Assembly: GCA_043745485.1 (NCBI GenBank)
Contig: JAYTSU010000021.1
Span: 2,533-66,532 of the forward strand
Direction of reading: 5' to 3'
DNA from: Candidatus Saccharimonadota bacterium
Lineage (GTDB): Bacteria > Patescibacteriota > Saccharimonadia > Saccharimonadales > JACDBH01
Length of the DNA: 64,000 nt
Each line of letters starts with the position of its first letter. Within the stretch, counting starts at the first letter, position 1. The notes beneath the pieces were generated by a model. The model was not told the DNA's origin. It was given only the letters and a program-made list of their open reading frames with translations, and ran no database searches. Shown piece by piece: positions 5,865 to 55,475 of this stretch. The translations under genes were made by a program, and so were the position numbers.

Positions 5865-7058
5865 ATGAAGCAAAAACATGTACTCATAGTGGGGGGCGGC
5901 TTTGCCGGCGTTAAGGCAGCGCTTGATCTCGCCAAGCACGATCAACATTTTAAGATAACCCTCCTTTCTGACGAGACCACATTTAATTACCACCCAACGC
6001 TGTATCATACTGCTACGGGCGGAAGCAGACAGGTGTCTGACATACCACTTAGTGAAATACTTGGTGATAAGCCAGTAAAAATTCTAAACGGCCATGCCGA
6101 AACGCTGGATAGAATTCATAAAACAGTTACTTTAGCAGACGGGTCTAAGCTACATTACGACATACTCATTCTTGCTCTTGGTGCTATCACTAACTATTTC
6201 GGTATTAAAGGTATGCAGGAATATTCATACGGTATTAAGTCACTCCAAGAAGCAGAAGAGCTTAAAGCCCATTTGCACAAACAGCTCATAGAAGACAAAA
6301 AGCCAGATCTTAATTATATAATTGTGGGTGGTGGACCAACGGGAGTAGAATTAGCCGGCGCACTTCCAGGCTATGTAAAACGAATCATGAAACAGCATGG
6401 ACTACGTGATGCAAAGTTACATGTCGACGTGGTGGAAGCGGCGCCACACCTGATGCCCCGTATGCCCAAGTCAGTTTCTAAATCGTTTGAACGAAGACTA
6501 CGCAGCTTAGGTGTTAAATTATACCTTGGTACTCCTGTGCAGGCAGAGACAGCCAACACGCTCCTTATGAACGGTAAATATGTCCGCAGTCATACGGTTG
6601 TTTGGACGGCAGGTATTGCTAATAACCCCTTCTTTGACAAGAATGGGTTTATGGCAACCAAGAACCATAAAGTCCAGATAGACAGGCTTATGCAAGCATG
6701 GCCAGGTATATTCGTCATCGGCGATAATGCTGACACGCCGTACAGTGGTATGGCACAGACTGCTCTGTATGATGCACATTTTGTAGTTGAGAACCTTGTA
6801 AGGCACGCAAACAATGAGCGTCCGTATGCATACAAGGCAAAAAAGCCGATTTATGTTACACCCGCTGGTCCACATTGGGCGTCAGTTGTCTGGGGCAGAG
6901 TGCACATCTATGGCTGGTTGGGCTGGGCCATACGGCAAGCAGCCGACTGGATGGGCTATAGAGACTTGGAGCCGTGGTGGCGCGCCACCGAACTTTTGAT
7001 TGCAAAAGCAGACCGTGAGGACGGTTGCGCTGTATGTGCCGCGCCCGCTTTTAAATAA
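5865..7058 (+). CDS. ndh: Type II NADH dehydrogenase (NDH-2)
   Basis: It has two dinucleotide-binding folds, VLIVGGGFAGVKAA and IIVGGGPTGVELAG. It also has GDNA near the C-terminal part. Confidence 0.85.
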   Translation: MKQKHVLIVGGGFAGVKAALDLAKHDQHFKITLLSDETTFNYHPTLYHTATGGSRQVSDIPLSEILGDKPVKILNGHAETLDRIHKTVTLADGSKLHYDILILALGAITNYFGIKGMQEYSYGIKSLQEAEELKAHLHKQLIEDKKPDLNYIIVGGGPTGVELAGALPGYVKRIMKQHGLRDAKLHVDVVEAAPHLMPRMPKSVSKSFERRLRSLGVKLYLGTPVQAETANTLLMNGKYVRSHTVVWTAGIANNPFFDKNGFMATKNHKVQIDRLMQAWPGIFVIGDNADTPYSGMAQTALYDAHFVVENLVRHANNERPYAYKAKKPIYVTPAGPHWASVVWGRVHIYGWLGWAIRQAADWMGYRDLEPWWRATELLIAKADREDGCAVCAAPAFK

Positions 7059-8037
7059 TTATCATGGCATCGCCAAAAGAATAAAATCGATAGTTCTGGG
7101 CAATTGCATGCGCATAGACACGCTGTAATTCGTCAACCGAACCCATAAACGCACTTACGAGCATCAATAGTGTACTTTTTGGTAAATGAAAATTAGTAAT
7201 CAGTGAGCCAACAGATTTGAATTCATAGCCAGGAGTAATAAATATAGCCGTAGAGCCGCTTTCTTCCTTAAAAGGCAATTGTGCACTTTCTAGGACCCGT
7301 ACAGTAGTCGTACCTACTGCAGTAATATGATTAGAAGCGTTTAGTATATGTGCCACTTCTGTACTCACCACGTATGATTCCTCATGCATTACGTGATCTC
7401 TTAAATTATCGGTTTTTACTGGTGCAAATGTACCCATACCTATGTGCAATGTAACTTCTGCAATTGTATGTTCTTTACGAATGTTCTCCAATAATTCTGA
7501 AGTAAAATGCAAACCCGCGGTCGGGGCAGCTTTACTACCAAGTGGATCAGCATAGACTGTTTGATATTCTTCAGCTAATGATTCGTCTTGAGCTATGTAT
7601 GGCGGTAGTGGCGTCAGGCGGAACGGATCAAAACTGACGTCGTCTAGGGGGCGATCAAGGCTGATTGTGCGAACGCCGTCATCGGCAATATCATCAACAC
7701 GAAATATAAAATTATCCACCGTAACTTCGCCAAGTTGGAACTTTTTGCCTGGATAAACCAACGCTTTTATGGTAGTAGGGTTAATAGTCTCAAGCACAAA
7801 TACTTCTGTTTTACCAAACCGCAAACGACACTTTTCGACTCGGCTATTATTAACGACGAGGGTGGAGTCTTTGGGTAAATACTTCGCAATATTATAAAAA
7901 AAGTCATCAATTATTGATTGTGATTTACGATCATACACAAGCAGCCGGGCGTGATCGCGAGGACTAGCAGGTACTTGAGCTATAAGACGCTCTGGCAGTA
8001 TAAAATCAAAATCTCTCAAAGTGTAGTTTTTAGGCAT
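7051..8037 (-). CDS. queA: S-adenosylmethionine:tRNA ribosyltransferase-isomerase
   Basis: The region from MPKNYTLRDFDFILPERLIAQVPASPRDHARLLVY to the end resembles QueA (328 aa). The ORF-track start at 8478 is an artefactual extension antisense to the helicase gene. Confidence 0.9.
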   Translation of the reverse strand: MPKNYTLRDFDFILPERLIAQVPASPRDHARLLVYDRKSQSIIDDFFYNIAKYLPKDSTLVVNNSRVEKCRLRFGKTEVFVLETINPTTIKALVYPGKKFQLGEVTVDNFIFRVDDIADDGVRTISLDRPLDDVSFDPFRLTPLPPYIAQDESLAEEYQTVYADPLGSKAAPTAGLHFTSELLENIRKEHTIAEVTLHIGMGTFAPVKTDNLRDHVMHEESYVVSTEVAHILNASNHITAVGTTTVRVLESAQLPFKEESGSTAIFITPGYEFKSVGSLITNFHLPKSTLLMLVSAFMGSVDELQRVYAHAIAQNYRFYSFGDAMIII

Positions 8038-8059
8038 AACAGAGTAGAATATACAGTAT

Positions 8060-11000
8060 ATGGGTAACTTCTCCAAAGAATATGACATGTTAAATGTCGA
8101 ACAAAAAAAGGCTGTCGATGCTACTGAGGGCGCAGTCTTGGTCATTGCAGGGCCGGGCACAGGCAAAACCCAACTTCTTTCACTACGAGTCGCAAACATA
8201 TTAGAAAAATCTGACAGCCTACCACAAAACATTTTATGTCTTACGTTTACTAATAAAGCTGCGAACAACATGCAACTTCGCTTGAGTAAACTCGTGGGCG
8301 CGGCCGCTCGTAAAGTCATGATAAGTACTTTCCATAGTTTTGCTGCTGAAGTCATGAATCTATACCCCGAATATTTTTGGCAGGGAGCACGCCTTATAAA
8401 TGTGCCACAAGCGGTGCAGTATGAAATTATTACTAATATACTATCAGCACTACCTCTCGACAATCCGCTTGCACTCAAATTTGCCGGTCAATTTACAAGC
8501 ACTAAAGATGTCTTAGATGGGCTGAGACTTGCTAAAGAAGCGGGTTTGACACCAGATAAGCTGCGAGCGCTTATAGAGCATAATATTTCGTACATTAACA
8601 CAGTCGAATCGGAGCTTGTAGAAATATGTTCTGAGCGACTGAGTTATAAAAAACTTGATGAACTCGCGCTACGTATTGAGGAGTTGCCTATGCAGCATAC
8701 CGACGATCTAACTCGGCCGCTTTCGGCACTATCAACCGTTATATTAGAAAGTTTTGAGGCCGCACATAGCGCTGATGAAGCTACGGCTAAGACAAGGAAT
8801 ACCAGTGCGTGGAAAAGCCGCTGGATCAAATCCGTTGAAGGCAAAAAAGGTATGTATGACGAAAGGAAGCGCAATGATTGGTGGTTGGCACTAGCTGATG
8901 TTTATGAAAGCTATAGAAATGCATTGCACGCTCGCGGCTTTTACGATTTTTCTGACATGATAATTGAAGTTATTACGCAACTAGAACGTCGTCCTGACAT
9001 GCTGGCCGACATTCAAGAACGTTTTCATTATGTGCTGATTGACGAGTTTCAGGATACGAATGCAGCTCAGCTTCGACTCGCGCACCTTGTTGCAGACAGC
9101 TATACGTCAGAAGGAAACCCAAATATTATGGCAGTAGGTGACGATGATCAGTCTATCTACAAGTTTAATGGAGCAGAGCTGAGTAATATGCTTGGCTTTA
9201 CACGGAGCTATCCTAAAGCGCAAATATTTGTGCTGACAGATAATTACCGCTCGAGCCAAAAGGTGCTTGATGTATCGATGGAAGTTATTAAGCAGGCAAG
9301 TGAACGCGTCACGACTAAATATGCTGCTATTACAAAAGAATTGGTCGCCAAAAACCCACCCGCAGCATCAAGTAACATCAAACATCTCTCCTTTCCAACC
9401 AAAGAACATGAATATTATGGTGTTGCCAAAGCCATTAAGTTAGCGCATAAAAAAGGTAGCGTAGCTGTACTCGCTCGCAGTCATGACAGTTTACGGAAAG
9501 TTGCCTTGGCATTGCGCTCCCAAAGTGTGCCTGTGCGCTATGAGCAACAGCAAAGTGTTTTGGAACAACCTATTATTAAACAGGTGTTGTTAATTAGCGA
9601 GATTATTACTGCAATATCTACAGGTGACGAGGCTCTCGTTAATACGTATATTCCAAAGCTTTTAACGTATGACACATGGCATATTACGCCGAGTATATTA
9701 TGGAAGCTTGCTCTGCAGAACCGCAACAATACTCACTGGTTAGAAAGTATGGAAAACAGCACTGACGAATACCTTATGAGCATTGCACAGTGGCTACTGT
9801 GGCTTGCAGGCAAAAGTCAGTCAGAGCCGCTCGTCCGTATGCTCGAATATATCATTGGACTTAGCGCCTCAGAACATATGACTAGTCCATTGCGCCGACA
9901 CTACTTAGAAGCTACCGCAGTAGATACGCCGTATCTCGCTGGCATATCTGCTATTTCTAAACTCATTACTCTTGCGCAAGAATTTAGCACACACGGCTCA
10001 GCTTCTATTGAAGATTTTGTGCGGCTCATGCGCGTAAGCCATGACAACAACCAAACCATCACTGATCAGTCGCTTTTTGTGACGTCTTCAGACGCAGTTG
10101 AGCTCCTAACAATACATAAGGCAAAGGGCCTTGAGTTTGACTCTGTCTATATAGTGGATGCAATGGAATCGAACTGGAAACCATCGTCACGCGGACGTAA
10201 AGCACCGTCTAACCTGCCACTACGTCCAGCAGGTGACAATTATGACGACTACGTACGGCTCATGTTTGTTGCGATGACACGTGCTAAGCGTGACCTAACA
10301 ATTGCTAGTTACTATACAAACGAGGCAGGCGATGAAGCTGTGCCATCGTCTATAATTCGTGACATCTTACCAGCAGAAATAATTACTTATAATAATGCGG
10401 ACAATCCTATTACTGTATTGGAACCTGCAGTTACATGGCCCCGGCTTGAAGGTAGTGATGAAACAACGCTTCTCAAAGATATCTTAGAAAACTATACATT
10501 AAGCCCTAGTGCATTTCTGGACTTCCTAGATATATCAAAAGGTGGGCCACAATATTTCTTAGAAAAATATTTGCTCCGTTTGCCAGAAGCTCAATCTACG
10601 GCGGCCGCATTTGGTAGCTCAATCCATAGAGCACTGGAAAGTGCTCAGCAGCTCATGCGTGACGGTAATTTTGATATAAATGCCATTACTTCCACATATA
10701 AAATTACGTTACTTGAACAAAATCTAAGCAGTCTGGAATATAGCCGCTATCTAGCCCATGGCAAGAATATTATCAGACGGCTATTTGAAAATTATGAATT
10801 AGTACTGAGTGTTGAGGGCAAGCCAGAAGTATCTTTGAATGTACACGTAAATGATGTTGCAATAAAAGGTAAGTTGGACCGTTTGGACAGTACTGAAAAT
10901 AGTCTACTCATAACTGACTATAAAACTGGTAAACCGTTGAGCTCTTTGCACACCAAAAACCAATCTTTACAGCTCAAAGCCTGGCGACATCGGACACAGT

Positions 11001-48206: not shown

Positions 48207-48836
48207 ATGGGACTTTTTGAACGCAAATCAACACCAATTACTATGAGTTATTTTAGTGTGGGCAATGAAAAAACTAAACTGATTGTGGGACTTGGAAATA
48301 TTGGCAAAAAATACGAATTTACTAGGCACAATGTTGGATTTTTATGCGTCGATAACATCGTAAAATTACAAAACGGTGAATGGAAAGAGAAGAAAACACT
48401 CAAAAGCCTTGTGGCAGAAGTGCGTGTTGGCGAAAAACGGGTGATATTTATAAAGCCAACTACACTTATGAACATGAGCGGCGATGCGGTCCAAGCCATA
48501 AAACAGTTTTATAAAATAGACAACAAAGACATTTTGATTGTGCACGACGAGCTTGCGTTACCATTTGGATCGCTTCGTATACGTACAGGCGGCAGCTCAG
48601 CAGGCAATAACGGCATTAAATCGGTCAGTGCAGCCATTGGCGAAGATTACTCACGCCTACGCATCGGCATAGCTGGAGAACACAGCACTGAAGAAGACGC
48701 CGCAGCCTATGTTCTTAAGAACTTCTCAAAAGCAGAGCAAGGGGAGTTGAAGGCTCTCTACGCCGAAACAAACGCACTCATCACCGAATTTATTTACTCC
48801 GACCATCTCCAGCCCGACACCCGCCAGTTTATCTAA
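48207..48836 (+). CDS. pth: Peptidyl-tRNA hydrolase
   Basis: It has LIVGLGNIGKKYEFTRHNVGF and DELALPFGSLRIR motifs. The start was trimmed, and 48207 has TATACT 7 nt upstream; 48243 (MSYF) is the alternative. Confidence 0.85.
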   Translation: MGLFERKSTPITMSYFSVGNEKTKLIVGLGNIGKKYEFTRHNVGFLCVDNIVKLQNGEWKEKKTLKSLVAEVRVGEKRVIFIKPTTLMNMSGDAVQAIKQFYKIDNKDILIVHDELALPFGSLRIRTGGSSAGNNGIKSVSAAIGEDYSRLRIGIAGEHSTEEDAAAYVLKNFSKAEQGELKALYAETNALITEFIYSDHLQPDTRQFI

Positions 48837-49137
48837 TAGTTTGTATAGCTTCGATTTCTACAAGATCAGCAACTATTTGCGTACCGATAGCCAGACCTTC
48901 AAGCTCTTCTGAGATAGTTCTGAGTCTTCGAATAGCATATGGCCTATCTGATATCATGCCATCTTCGTGGTCACTATAAAGTGCTATTAGTTCATGTGCG
49001 CACGCATCGGCCCGAGCGCGTACTTGCAGTGCGACCATTGGCATGGCTCGATAATCGATTGGCGAACGCTTTTCACCAGTTAAATTAAGTTCTCGATCTG
49101 TAAAGTGAACTAAACCGGTAGATATATCATGCTGCAT
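48829..49137 (-). CDS. Hypothetical protein
   Basis: A 102-aa ORF with TATAAT 7 nt upstream of the ATG. Its 3' end overlaps the pth stop by 8 nt, and I recognise no family. Confidence 0.4.
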   Translation of the reverse strand: MQHDISTGLVHFTDRELNLTGEKRSPIDYRAMPMVALQVRARADACAHELIALYSDHEDGMISDRPYAIRRLRTISEELEGLAIGTQIVADLVEIEAIQTIR

Positions 49138-49179
49138 AATTATAATTATAAATCCTTTTAGTATAAGTGTTATAAATTG

Positions 49180-49751
49180 GCTTAAAATGAAGAGCCTCCA
49201 GAGGGGGTGGGCACCGCTGGAGGCTCATTACACCCTTCAACCCACCTTGAAGGCCTCCCCACACCATATCTGCGGTCAAGTACTCTCGTAAATGTACTTC
49301 ACGTTGCGCAGATATGGTGTGGGGCCCACTCGAGGTATAACCGTCGTATCACTCTTAGCCTCAAAAAAACGAGGGAGGAACGCGGGGTTAAAGGGGTTAG
49401 TCCGTCCTAGAACGCTTGCAACTCCCAGAGTCCGGCAAAATCTCGCAGCTGATAGCTAGAACATAAGCAGCGGTTGTGATTTTCTAAAGATTTTATTGGG
49501 ACAACAACTTACCCGTGGGATAAGTTTTGGCTCAAAAAATCTTTAGAAAGTGACCGACCTTATGTTTTAGCCAGCTGAGGGGTTTTGCTGGACTCTTGGG
49601 GATGCGTAGCTAGATAAGTGGAGGGTAACAACTTATAAAGCACGTTCTAAAACAGCTAACGAATTTATCTGATGTTACTCAGATAAACGTTAAATAGGGG
49701 TATAAGGTACCTGAAATCTCATAAAGAGACTCACGGATTGCCATTTTAGCA
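49180..49751 (+). ncRNA. Candidate large structured ncRNA (possibly an expanded RNase P RNA); strand and identity unproven
   Basis: The 665-bp gap has no credible ORF and holds nested helices. These are 49192-49201/49217-49226, 49234-49240/49247-49253, an 18-bp perfect stem at 49257-49274/49307-49324, and a 178-nt rod at 49424-49601. Further helices are 49614-49619/49631-49636 and 49664-49672/49679-49687, plus long-range 49408-49414/49643-49649. The rod has at least 5 G:U pairs if read on the plus strand, which would be A:C on the minus strand. Motifs reminiscent of RNase P conserved regions occur in the right order. Confidence 0.35.
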
Positions 49752-49802
49752 AACTTATGACATTATGTCAATACTTAAATACATTAGGAGGGTATTGTCA
49801 AT

Positions 49803-50651
49803 ATGCTAACGCTTACATCACCAGATATACCGCATGACCTTTTGCAGCTTGCTAGTCCCGTTGAGAAGCTACACATTATAGGTAATAATTTTGATGATCT
49901 TATGAAACGTCCGCGCTTGGCTATTGTTGGTAGCCGTAAGATTACCCCATACGGCAGGGGTGTTACCCAGAGCCTCGCGAGTGAGCTTGCAAGTAAAGGT
50001 GTTGTGATTGTGAGCGGTCTTGCACTTGGCACCGACTCCATCGGGCACAAAGCGTGTATTGATGCGGGTGGCCAAACAATAGCCGTGCTACCTTCGGGAC
50101 CGAAAAAGGTCTACCCCAGTATCCATACCAACCTAGCACGTCAAATTGTCCAAACAGGAGGCGTCGTCGTCACAGAGTATGACGGCACCTACCAGCCACA
50201 TGCCTACGACTTCCTCAAGCGCAATCGTATAGTAGCTGCTCTGAGCGATGGTGTGTTGGTAACTGAGGCTGCGGCACGCAGTGGTACCCTTAATACTGCC
50301 AGCCACGCCCTTGAGCTCGGCAAGCCAGTGTTTGCAGTGCCAGGTAATATTACCAACCCTTTAAGCGCCGGCTGCAACAACCTCATTAAAGCTGGTGCCA
50401 TCCCCGTAACCTGTGTCGAGGACATTTTAATAGCTTTAGAATGGCAAGACCTCAGTGCTGAGCCAAAGGTGGTTTTGGGTGCAACTGATGAAGAAACTGC
50501 CATACTATCACTTTTAGAACAAGGAATAAGCGACGGAGCGGAACTACTTGCAAAAACCGAACTTGAAGCCAGTCGTTTTAACCAAGCACTCACTATGCTT
50601 GAAATAACCGGCAAGATTCGCCCCCTCGGCGCCAATCACTGGTCTTTATAA
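49803..50651 (+). CDS. dprA: DNA-processing protein DprA (Smf)
   Basis: It has LAIVGSRKITPYG...VIVSGLALGTDSIGHKACIDAGG.TIAVLPSG. AGGAGGG lies 7 nt upstream of the ATG. Confidence 0.85.
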   Translation: MLTLTSPDIPHDLLQLASPVEKLHIIGNNFDDLMKRPRLAIVGSRKITPYGRGVTQSLASELASKGVVIVSGLALGTDSIGHKACIDAGGQTIAVLPSGPKKVYPSIHTNLARQIVQTGGVVVTEYDGTYQPHAYDFLKRNRIVAALSDGVLVTEAAARSGTLNTASHALELGKPVFAVPGNITNPLSAGCNNLIKAGAIPVTCVEDILIALEWQDLSAEPKVVLGATDEETAILSLLEQGISDGAELLAKTELEASRFNQALTMLEITGKIRPLGANHWSL

Positions 50652-54859: not shown

Positions 54860-55475
54860 ATTCATTTGTATACAAATTACGAACAAGGGTAGTAGTCAAA
54901 TAAAGATAAGCCAGGCCGCCAGATAAGGCGTTTTTTTGAAATTGCACTGTAATAAACAGGGATTATATAAAAATATAAAAACAAACAGGAAAGCAGAACA
55001 GGAAACACTAGCAACGAAAGTTAAACAAGAGTAGCAGTAGGCATAGACTAGACGTCGTACAATGTATATTTTGCGACTAACATATAGTAGAAATAGATGA
55101 TTAGCTATGCCTCTATAGCAGGGGTTAAAACACTACTTATCTCTGTTAAGTACCCACGCACTATATATGCCTTACGTTATTATTACTTAAATCGTTATTC
55201 GCTGGCATTATTAGCATATCTACTTTTACCAGACTGGTAGACGCCGTAAAGCACTTGCTTTTTGTATATTATAGTTTTTTTGTATACTTTTCACGGTCAT
55301 TTCACGCTAAAAATTTTACCGTCACTACCCCTGCCTCACTCCCCTGTTTTGCTATTTGCATTTTGGTAAATATATAGTTTTATATAGTTTTTTAATATAA
55401 TACAATATAAAATGAACATATTACGAACAAGCAGGGGCTAGCAGCGGGGGAGATACAAATAGCCACCTAACCTCC

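Follow-up and report, generated by a model that had tools for sequence, protein, structure and literature searches.

A 665-bp gap upstream of dprA (positions 49138-49802) in the 64-kb stretch of Saccharibacteria DNA analysed here (64,000 nucleotides, hereafter the window) most probably contains a stand-alone gene for a structured non-coding RNA (ncRNA), encoded by the minus strand, divergent from dprA, lying outside the families of Rfam 15 and seen only in Saccharibacteria (TM7). The predicted transcript, of about 550 nt (positions 49186-49738, minus strand), has its own promoter and its own intrinsic terminator in conserved positions, as an independent ncRNA gene would, and its secondary structure is maintained by compensatory substitutions among relatives. 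The first-pass annotation of this stretch, made from its letters alone, had offered two explanations for the gap: an expanded RNase P RNA (rnpB) read from the plus strand or, failing that, a novel large structured ncRNA. Conserved and covarying helices, together with the dedicated promoter and terminator, spoke for the second.

Promoter, terminator, strand and distribution

The gap separates an open reading frame (ORF) of 102 amino acids (48829-49137, minus strand) from dprA (49803-50651, plus strand), in the gene order der, pth, 102-amino-acid ORF, dprA, topA. No other gap of the window that lacks a credible ORF was as long, and in that sense it was the largest non-coding one, as the first-pass annotation had stated; its description as ORF-free was too strict, ORFs of up to 67 amino acids being present. 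None of these had a Pfam match, indels break them in relatives, and they were rejected as genes. The gap was by far the most structured of the window (minimum free energy, MFE, of -0.405 kcal/mol per nt vs. -0.21 to -0.28 in the other gaps): it folded at -269 kcal/mol on the plus strand (z -15.4 with respect to dinucleotide shuffles) and at -254.8 kcal/mol on the minus strand (z -16.2), which bore out the dense structure noticed at first. The unusual GC content proposed for this spacer was not found (0.427 vs. 0.44 for the window), only positions 49200-49400 reaching 0.54.

Two minus-strand signals, a consensus promoter and a terminator-like hairpin, had been listed as competing with the plus-strand reading and proved to be those of the actual gene. 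The promoter (positions 49743-49771, minus strand) consists of a -35 box TTGACA (49771-49766), a 17-nt spacer and an extended -10 element, TGCTAAAAT, with its hexamer at 49748-49743, and was the best sigma-70 match in the region 48800-50000 (11/12 plus TG). The arrangement TTGACA-N16/17-TG(n)TAnnAT was kept in 46 of 47 Saccharibacteria loci at a constant distance from the conserved RNA, and was also present in the phage-borne copy of L112, where the complete gene lies in a different genomic context. At the other end, the terminator (49184-49226, minus strand) is formed by a hairpin (49226-49192) with the loop GCGGUGCCCACCCCCUC (49217-49201) and by the U-run UUCAUUUU (49191-49184). The loop was identical in 47 loci while the stems covaried, and a hairpin followed by a U-run was found at the 3' end of the RNA in every homologue. 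The hairpin has one copy in the window; a simple terminator scan, with a loop limit of 8 nt, missed it. The limits of the predicted transcript were set 5-7 nt past the -10 box and in the U-run; in relatives the RNA was mostly 330-430 nt long, and up to about 630 nt with insertions. A long-range pairing proposed at first between 49180-49188 and 49743-49750 would join the U-tail to the -10 box and falls outside the transcript.

The strand was indicated by several kinds of evidence. In all well-supported helices the G.U pairs lay on the minus strand. When internal mismatches of the terminator stems were counted on the minus strand by one rule treating both kinds alike, G.U outnumbered A.C by 16 to 0 in the genome loci and by 31 to 2 in the metagenome contigs among the matches listed. 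The long helix and the 5' hairpins held dozens of G.U cells on the minus strand, which would be A.C on the plus strand, in the pair tables of both RNAalifold and the covariance model. The MFE was lower on the minus strand in 44 of 46 homologues (mean -151 vs. -138 kcal/mol, p = 1e-11), a difference that also held segment by segment; the window was one of the two exceptions, because of a long hairpin private to this genome (the rod, described below). A covariance model of the 5' domain (R1) scored 50-176 bits on the minus strand and 23-43 bits on the reverse strand. The strand evidence by itself excludes a plus-strand reading.

The spacer 5' of dprA was kept in essentially every Saccharibacteria locus fetched, in about 50 genomes. 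The closest dprA loci all came from Saccharibacteria metagenome-assembled genomes, and about 55 loci shared blastn blocks (49190-49246, 49387-49417 and 49607-49787 of the window) while their DprA proteins were only 48-86% identical; one block of 57 nt was 100% identical at 54% DprA identity. R1 matched all the Saccharibacteria dprA loci, with the scores given above, and found nothing in seven dprA loci of other lineages (Falkowbacteria, Paceibacterota, a bin labelled Gammaproteobacteria, Actinomycetes, Polyangia, Oscillospiraceae and Scatosoma). The 17-nt terminator loop had at least 120 matches in metagenomes; 76 of those listed were the 3' end of a full-length RNA, and a divergent dprA lay less than 200 nt from the -35 box in 35 of the 44 informative contigs among them.

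Fold and covariation of the RNA

Read 5' to 3' on the minus strand, the RNA begins with Hb (49711-49733), a hairpin of variable sequence (helix 2) in which all 8 pairs showed double-sided changes, with 85% paired; this segment folded better on the minus strand in 33 sequences vs. 3. A conserved, unpaired C-rich segment follows (GUACCUUAUACCCCUAUUUAAC, 49689-49710, minus strand; plus-strand reading 'AAATAGGGGT-ATAAGGTAC'), with near-invariant columns in alignment A1 and the consensus GYACCUUAUACCCCUAUUCUAAC. The next hairpin, hpB (49661-49688, minus strand; helix 3), showed double changes in 8/8 pairs and was 90% paired; it was missing or reduced to a loop of 4-6 nt in some relatives and extended to about 190 nt in L004. 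GUUAG and the 5' strand of Hd, CUGUUUUAGAACG, occupy positions 49643-49660 (minus strand). Hd (helix 4) has 17 pairs, 98.8% paired and 11 of them with double changes, and closes a three-way junction that holds the hairpin He (about 49610-49639) and a small hairpin, Hf, at the site of which the window carries the rod. The apical loop of He, GUUGUUACCCUCCAC (49618-49632, minus strand), was invariant in 38/38 sequences and resembles an anti-Shine-Dalgarno sequence (CCUCC). The 3' strand of Hd, CGUUCUAG, and the adjoining GACGGACUAA, with a second copy of CUAAC, were located from the pair tables at 49397-49414 (minus strand), where the first-pass annotation had pointed to an RNase P-like 'AGTCCG'.

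On the 3' side of the junction lies AGACUAACCCCUUUAAC, the CCCUUUAAC of which pairs with the distant GUUGAAGGG to form the long-range helix Hg. In the window the 5' strand of Hg (CCCCUUUAAC, 49387-49396, minus strand) pairs with 49241-49233, and the enclosed variable domain (49250-49386, minus strand), which includes an 18-bp perfect stem (49257-49274/49307-49324), measured 65-175 nt among relatives and folded better on the minus strand in 24 sequences vs. 14. GGUGGG (49246-49241) and the 3' strand of Hg, GUUGAAGGG (49241-49233), together make up positions 49233-49246 (minus strand) and were found as GGGUGGGUUGAAGGG in nearly all homologues, including those of deep lineages. After Hg the order is GGGUGGG, an optional hairpin and the terminator hairpin. 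Four invariant C-rich segments are apparently unpaired: ACCUUAUACCCC, UUACCCUCCAC, CUAACCCC and the loop GCCCACCCCC. The helices that had been paired by eye at 49192-49226, in the 18-bp stem, in the rod and at about 49614-49636 and 49664-49687 all exist, as does the long-range pairing of 49408-49414 with 49643-49649.

The alignment of related spacers, suggested at first as a check, revealed helices that are both conserved and covarying, on the minus strand. Covariation was measured in alignment A3, in which 86 distinct sequences were fitted to the covariance model; RNAalifold on a MAFFT alignment of the full-length RNAs (1183 columns, dominated by insertions) recovered only 3 helices, and anchors plus the covariance model were used instead. 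Standard pairs filled 86.1% of the cells of A3 vs. 72.2% in shuffles, and 41 of 50 pairs showed double-sided changes. The covariation score was 0.322 vs. 0.139 in shuffles, none of 500 reaching the observed value, and fell to 0.081 or less when the partners were slid. Hb, hpB and Hd were 85-99% paired, figures which are inflated by the fitting of A3 to the model's own structure. In the deep lineages L034, L040 and L045 the entire sequence of Hd was swapped for other complementary strands, while ACCCUCCAC, CUAACCCCUUUAAC, GGGUGGGUUGAAGGG and the loop core UGCCCACCC were retained. For Hg, compensatory classes AAC/GUU, AAG/CUU, AAA/UUU and CGCC/GGC were found. From the complementarity of the terminator loop CCCACC and GGUGGG we infer a pseudoknot or kissing contact between them.

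Several points weigh against the interpretation of the locus as an independent ncRNA gene with this fold. Apart from the inflated percentages just mentioned, three short helices (outer He, Hf) were only 54-60% paired and were poorly aligned in A3. Both sides of the CCCACC/GGUGGG contact are invariant, their complementarity being its only basis. The fold is partly ambiguous: GUUAG (49656-49660) can pair with CUAAC either at 49689-49693 or at 49397-49401, the two pairings being mutually exclusive, and they could represent a conformational switch or an intermediate of co-transcriptional folding. The transcript and both its ends are predicted from sequence signals only. A canonical rnpB was not located within the ~64 kb of this genome or the ~9 kb per relative. 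Finally, no Saccharibacteria or Patescibacteria RNA of this kind, nor the loop sequence, was found in the literature, although it may be described elsewhere.

Known RNA families and other explanations of the locus

The whole window was compared with Rfam 15 at the gathering score, and positions 49050-49900 and the compact homologue L022 (2850-3340) at E<=10, a listing that extends down to about 15 bits, on both strands. Three tRNAs were the only matches over the whole window, and at E<=10 there was nothing on either strand of 49050-49900 except miRNA-like hairpin noise. No relevant Rfam match was found in 16 relatives, in L022 or in 20 viral loci. This covered the families that the first-pass annotation had named for such a check: RNase P RNA, 6S RNA, transfer-messenger RNA (tmRNA), signal recognition particle (SRP) RNA, ROOL, GOLLD, OLE and raiA, to which HEARO was added, none of them matching at the gathering score or at E<=10. 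The RNA belongs to no Rfam 15 family, and literature searches found no description of it. It shares with OLE, raiA motif RNA, ROOL, GOLLD and HEARO a length of several hundred nt, many covarying helices, a lineage-restricted distribution, variable insertions, invariant unpaired nucleotides and a proposed pseudoknot, and raiA RNA also adjoins a competence gene, comFC. It differs from all of them in its consensus, in its restriction to Saccharibacteria as far as tested, and in having its own consensus promoter and a terminator loop within the conserved core.

A known housekeeping RNA (tmRNA, SRP RNA or 6S RNA) that has diverged past recognition by the models is an unlikely explanation. Such an origin would fit a single-copy, phylum-wide RNA of 330-430 nt with a strong promoter; moreover, the Prokaryotic Genome Annotation Pipeline (PGAP) annotates only 2 ncRNAs in a genome of one Saccharibacterium, Nanosynbacter (PMC8830319), so that one housekeeping RNA, rnpB included, may escape detection there. 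Besides the absence of Rfam matches, however, ARAGORN was negative for tmRNA in the window and 46 loci; acceptor pairing of the 5' and 3' ends, a T-loop and a conserved tag ORF are all missing from the RNA, as is the domain-IV motif of SRP RNA, and its shape is unlike the 6S rod with its central bubble.

Equally unlikely is a cis-acting element belonging either to dprA, as a long 5' leader or an antisense regulator, or to the downstream minus-strand gene, as its leader. The divergent synteny with dprA is tight and conserved, and two promoters apparently overlap back to back: a candidate dprA promoter, TTGCCA-17-CATTAT with TG (49738-49766, plus strand), which is weak (9/12) and a pattern match only, faces away from the promoter of the RNA. 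Only 31 nt separate the -35 box of the RNA from the dprA ATG, and the strong RNA promoter may occlude dprA transcription (promoter interference). The RNA nevertheless extends in the direction opposite to dprA, as far as a hairpin with its U-run, and it occurs apart from this gene: L112 has the complete gene without dprA, and several metagenome copies among the matches listed also lack an adjacent dprA. As for the minus strand, the downstream gene differs by locus, unrelated ORFs of about 100 amino acids taking the same position in other genomes. The 102-amino-acid ORF of the window, directly 3' of the terminator, had no Pfam match and no homologue among about 300 fetched loci, and was rejected as a partner gene.

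It is slightly less likely still that the locus is a DNA-level feature, a cluster of palindromes or of insertions resembling miniature inverted-repeat transposable elements (MITEs), without RNA function, or that the rod alone is a mobile or self-expanding hairpin element sitting in a tolerant loop. Both strands fold almost equally in the window, as such an explanation would predict; an RNA is indicated instead by the covariation, by the G.U bias towards one strand, by loops that do not vary and by the presence of a promoter and a terminator. The rod, an irregular hairpin of 189 nt (positions 49418-49606), replaces the 13-45 nt hairpin Hf of relatives, is absent from every one of them, and represents an expansion, private to this genome, of the tip of a single small hairpin, outside the family core. 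It folded at -106 kcal/mol on the plus strand vs. -83.5 on the minus strand, with G.U in 9/85 pairs vs. 1/77. The earlier observation that its wobble pairs lie on the plus strand was therefore correct for the rod; the conclusion drawn from it, a plus-strand RNA, was not, since a private insertion carries no such argument over to the conserved element, the helices of which wobble on the minus strand. Neither the 64-kb window nor the 2.26 Mb of related DNA fetched contained a second copy of the rod, whereas a MITE or repeated palindromic element would have several.

Similar-sized rods were nevertheless seen in other loci. The five (window 49418-49606; L009 3605-3782; L042 3652-3835; L239 900-1075; L031 252-434) have self-complementary cores of 161-188 nt, three different hairpin tips and both orientations, and each prefers one strand. 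Folding was favoured antisense to the host RNA by 16-26 kcal/mol in four of them (window, L009, L042 and L239), with 5-9 G.U on the antisense strand vs. 0-4 in sense; that of L031 is in sense orientation, and the sense strand gave the better fold in the insertions of L004, L039, L206, L214, L223 and L031. No sequence similarity was seen among the five rods, which were rejected as one sequence family; that of L009 resembles a grown version of a 57-nt hairpin in L008. At roughly 162-190 nt, the rods may be a new small hairpin-shaped insertion element with its own functional strand or, alternatively, hairpins growing by inverted duplication under strand-biased mutation.

The least likely explanation, which can be set aside, is a diverged or expanded rnpB on the plus strand, co-directional with dprA. 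The RNA is comparable to bacterial RNase P RNA (RF00010, type A; RF00011, type B) in size, in its one copy per genome segment and in its variable helix expansions, and the plus strand contains short strings resembling the conserved regions CR-I, CR-IV and CR-V in the right order. It is known that the RNase P RNAs of the candidate phyla radiation (CPR) have diverged and score below the Rfam cut-offs; RF00010 matches, some at lowered thresholds, have been reported without coordinates in 35 circular CPR genomes, including two of Saccharimonadia (PMC8172020). Neither RF00010 nor RF00011 matched the window or L022 here, whether the gathering score or E<=10 (on 491-851 nt) was applied. The motifs, on which the first-pass annotation had leaned, did not rise above chance across the family. 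In local alignments to E. coli rnpB (L177), 1 of 200 shuffles did as well as the window, a borderline result, while 31-199 of 200 did as well as its homologues L022, L047, L017 and L059; L012 scored high on both strands (0 and 3 of 200), pointing to composition rather than homology. The plus-strand string AAATAGGGGT--ATAAGGTAC matches 'AAATAGGGGTTCATAAGGTAC' of the E. coli RNA (M1) at 19/21 positions in the window only. The CR-I-like sequence is GGGGUUAGUCYG, not GAGGAAAGUCC, 'AA' reading UU here, and the conserved J3/4 adenosines are absent.

The helices of RNase P RNA fared no better. The P4-like pairing (49399-49404/49734-49739) was 88% canonical on the plus strand in 38 homologues when G.U was counted (157 Watson-Crick, 76 G.U and 33 mismatched cells) and had 97 mismatches (36%) on the minus strand; one side varies C/U opposite a fixed A, so that the pairing is held on the plus strand only by its G.U cells (29%), with no clean double change. 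The would-be P5/P7 helix is the one with dozens of G.U on the minus strand, or A.C on the plus strand. P1-P3 are not present, leaving no P1-P4 framework, and the rod at the site proposed for P12 is the private insertion lacking in relatives. With the promoter, the terminator and its U-run on the opposite strand as well, RNase P RNA was rejected: no model match, a P4 without covariation and helices selected on the other strand.

Two observations on the surroundings of the RNA are added. The invariant loop UACCCUCC has a complement in the ribosome-binding site of the window's dprA, AGGAGGGUA, a site that is not kept in L022. A second long gap of the window (54860-55475; 616 nt, GC 0.35), with no ORF of 50 amino acids or more, had weak structure (-0.21 kcal/mol per nt) and no Rfam match.

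Viral copies of the terminal hairpin and possible functions

The exact 17-nt terminator loop, G[CT]GGTGCCCACCCCCTC, was also found in 55 viral contigs of IMG/VR (L066-L120). A flanking stem was present in 43 of 51 distinct viral instances, formed by unrelated covarying sequences (median 9 bp) with G.U 24 vs. A.C 10, and no GGGTGG partner lay near these hairpins. Their contexts varied, from tiny units of a -10 box, the hairpin and a U-run, through copies placed ahead of phage structural genes, to a few copies inside apparent coding sequence; examples of solitary hairpins are L073 1933-1949(-), L068 2332-2348(+) and L084 950-966(-). L084 was confirmed as a fragment of a phage, with a large terminase subunit (PHROGs); here a small gene and a scaffold-like gene flank the hairpin, downstream of the terminase and portal genes. 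Among cultured phages (INPHARED) the loop motif had only two matches, both at chance level.

The 38-kb viral-classed contig L112 contained a complete RNA gene (7950-8370(+), 145 bits) with promoter and terminator and no dprA, as well as a second, solitary hairpin (6863-6879(-)) upstream of a RecT-like gene. This contig also encodes an FtsK-nuclease, two DNA methyltransferases and a KhpA-like KH-domain protein. A KhpA-like ORF occurred in L117 too; two contigs are too few for a recurrent neighbour, and this protein was rejected as anecdotal.

In L088 (~9440-9600(-)) and L089 (~7400-7560(-)) the solitary hairpin stands between a tRNA-like 3' half (T-arm, acceptor CUCCCCG) and a tRNA-like 5' half (CGGGGAG, D-arm); possible readings are tandem tRNAs with introns, or a permuted tRNA, and ARAGORN called no tRNA at either pair of halves. 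The invariant loop GTTGTTACCCTCCAC had 57 matches in viral contigs, of which only that of L112 was the RNA itself; about 25 shared a seemingly conserved coding context and the remainder looked like chance. The string CCAT(C/T)AGTTGTTACCCTCCAC(C/T)TGTACAG was found in about 25 viral contigs (L123, L124, L129, L131, L134, L135 and ~20 more) without other parts of the RNA; it probably encodes a conserved part of a phage protein and shares the 15-mer of the invariant loop by coincidence.

As to function, we tentatively propose that this might be a trans-acting RNA, a scaffold or regulator to which a protein partner or G-rich RNA (Shine-Dalgarno-like sequences, for instance) would bind at the terminal hairpin and the exposed C-rich loops. 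That hairpin would then be a portable 'handle' copied by phages, as its stand-alone copies in phage genomes suggest, and the viral loop, with no GGGUGGG partner nearby, could compete freely for the ligand of the host. Slightly less probable is that the RNA could be a Saccharibacteria-specific core ribonucleoprotein scaffold or a catalytic RNA, ranking with other housekeeping RNAs, the terminal loop of which docks an essential host factor that phages hijack or titrate through their copies of the hairpin and now and then, as in L112, of the entire gene. Confidence in any functional proposal is low.

The nearest parallels are of two kinds. In Gram-positive bacteria, trans-acting small RNAs of the RsaE/RoxS type pair with Shine-Dalgarno regions through C-rich loops; the RNA described here likewise has exposed invariant C-rich motifs (CCUCC, CCCC), an independent gene and an intrinsic terminator, but is three to five times longer, with a complex, tertiary-looking core and no Rfam match. 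Phages are also known to carry RNA mimics of host modules, such as the solitary CRISPR repeats that act as 'RNA anti-CRISPRs'. The viral hairpins resemble these as a short host module, the loop of the terminal hairpin, that is solitary in phage genomes and often has its own promoter; unlike in those cases, conservation is confined to the loop while the stems vary, and the module comes from a host RNA other than a CRISPR RNA.

The genomes of Saccharibacteria and related bacteria are tiny, about 1 Mb, and contain very little non-coding DNA; an RNA gene of 350-550 nt that persists throughout the group, with segments conserved above the neighbouring proteins, is likely to have an important role. 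Rfam 15 contains no RNA class specific to Saccharibacteria. With a covariance model of the family, one of the largest intergenic regions still unexplained in these genomes would be annotated and would no longer be mistaken for a diverged rnpB, and as cultivated, genetically tractable strains exist, the gene is open to deletion, tagging and pull-down. The solitary phage hairpins offer a second handle on its function and would be a rare viral mimicry of a host RNA module; if this is true, they would disclose an undescribed interface of RNA mimicry between CPR bacteria and their viruses.

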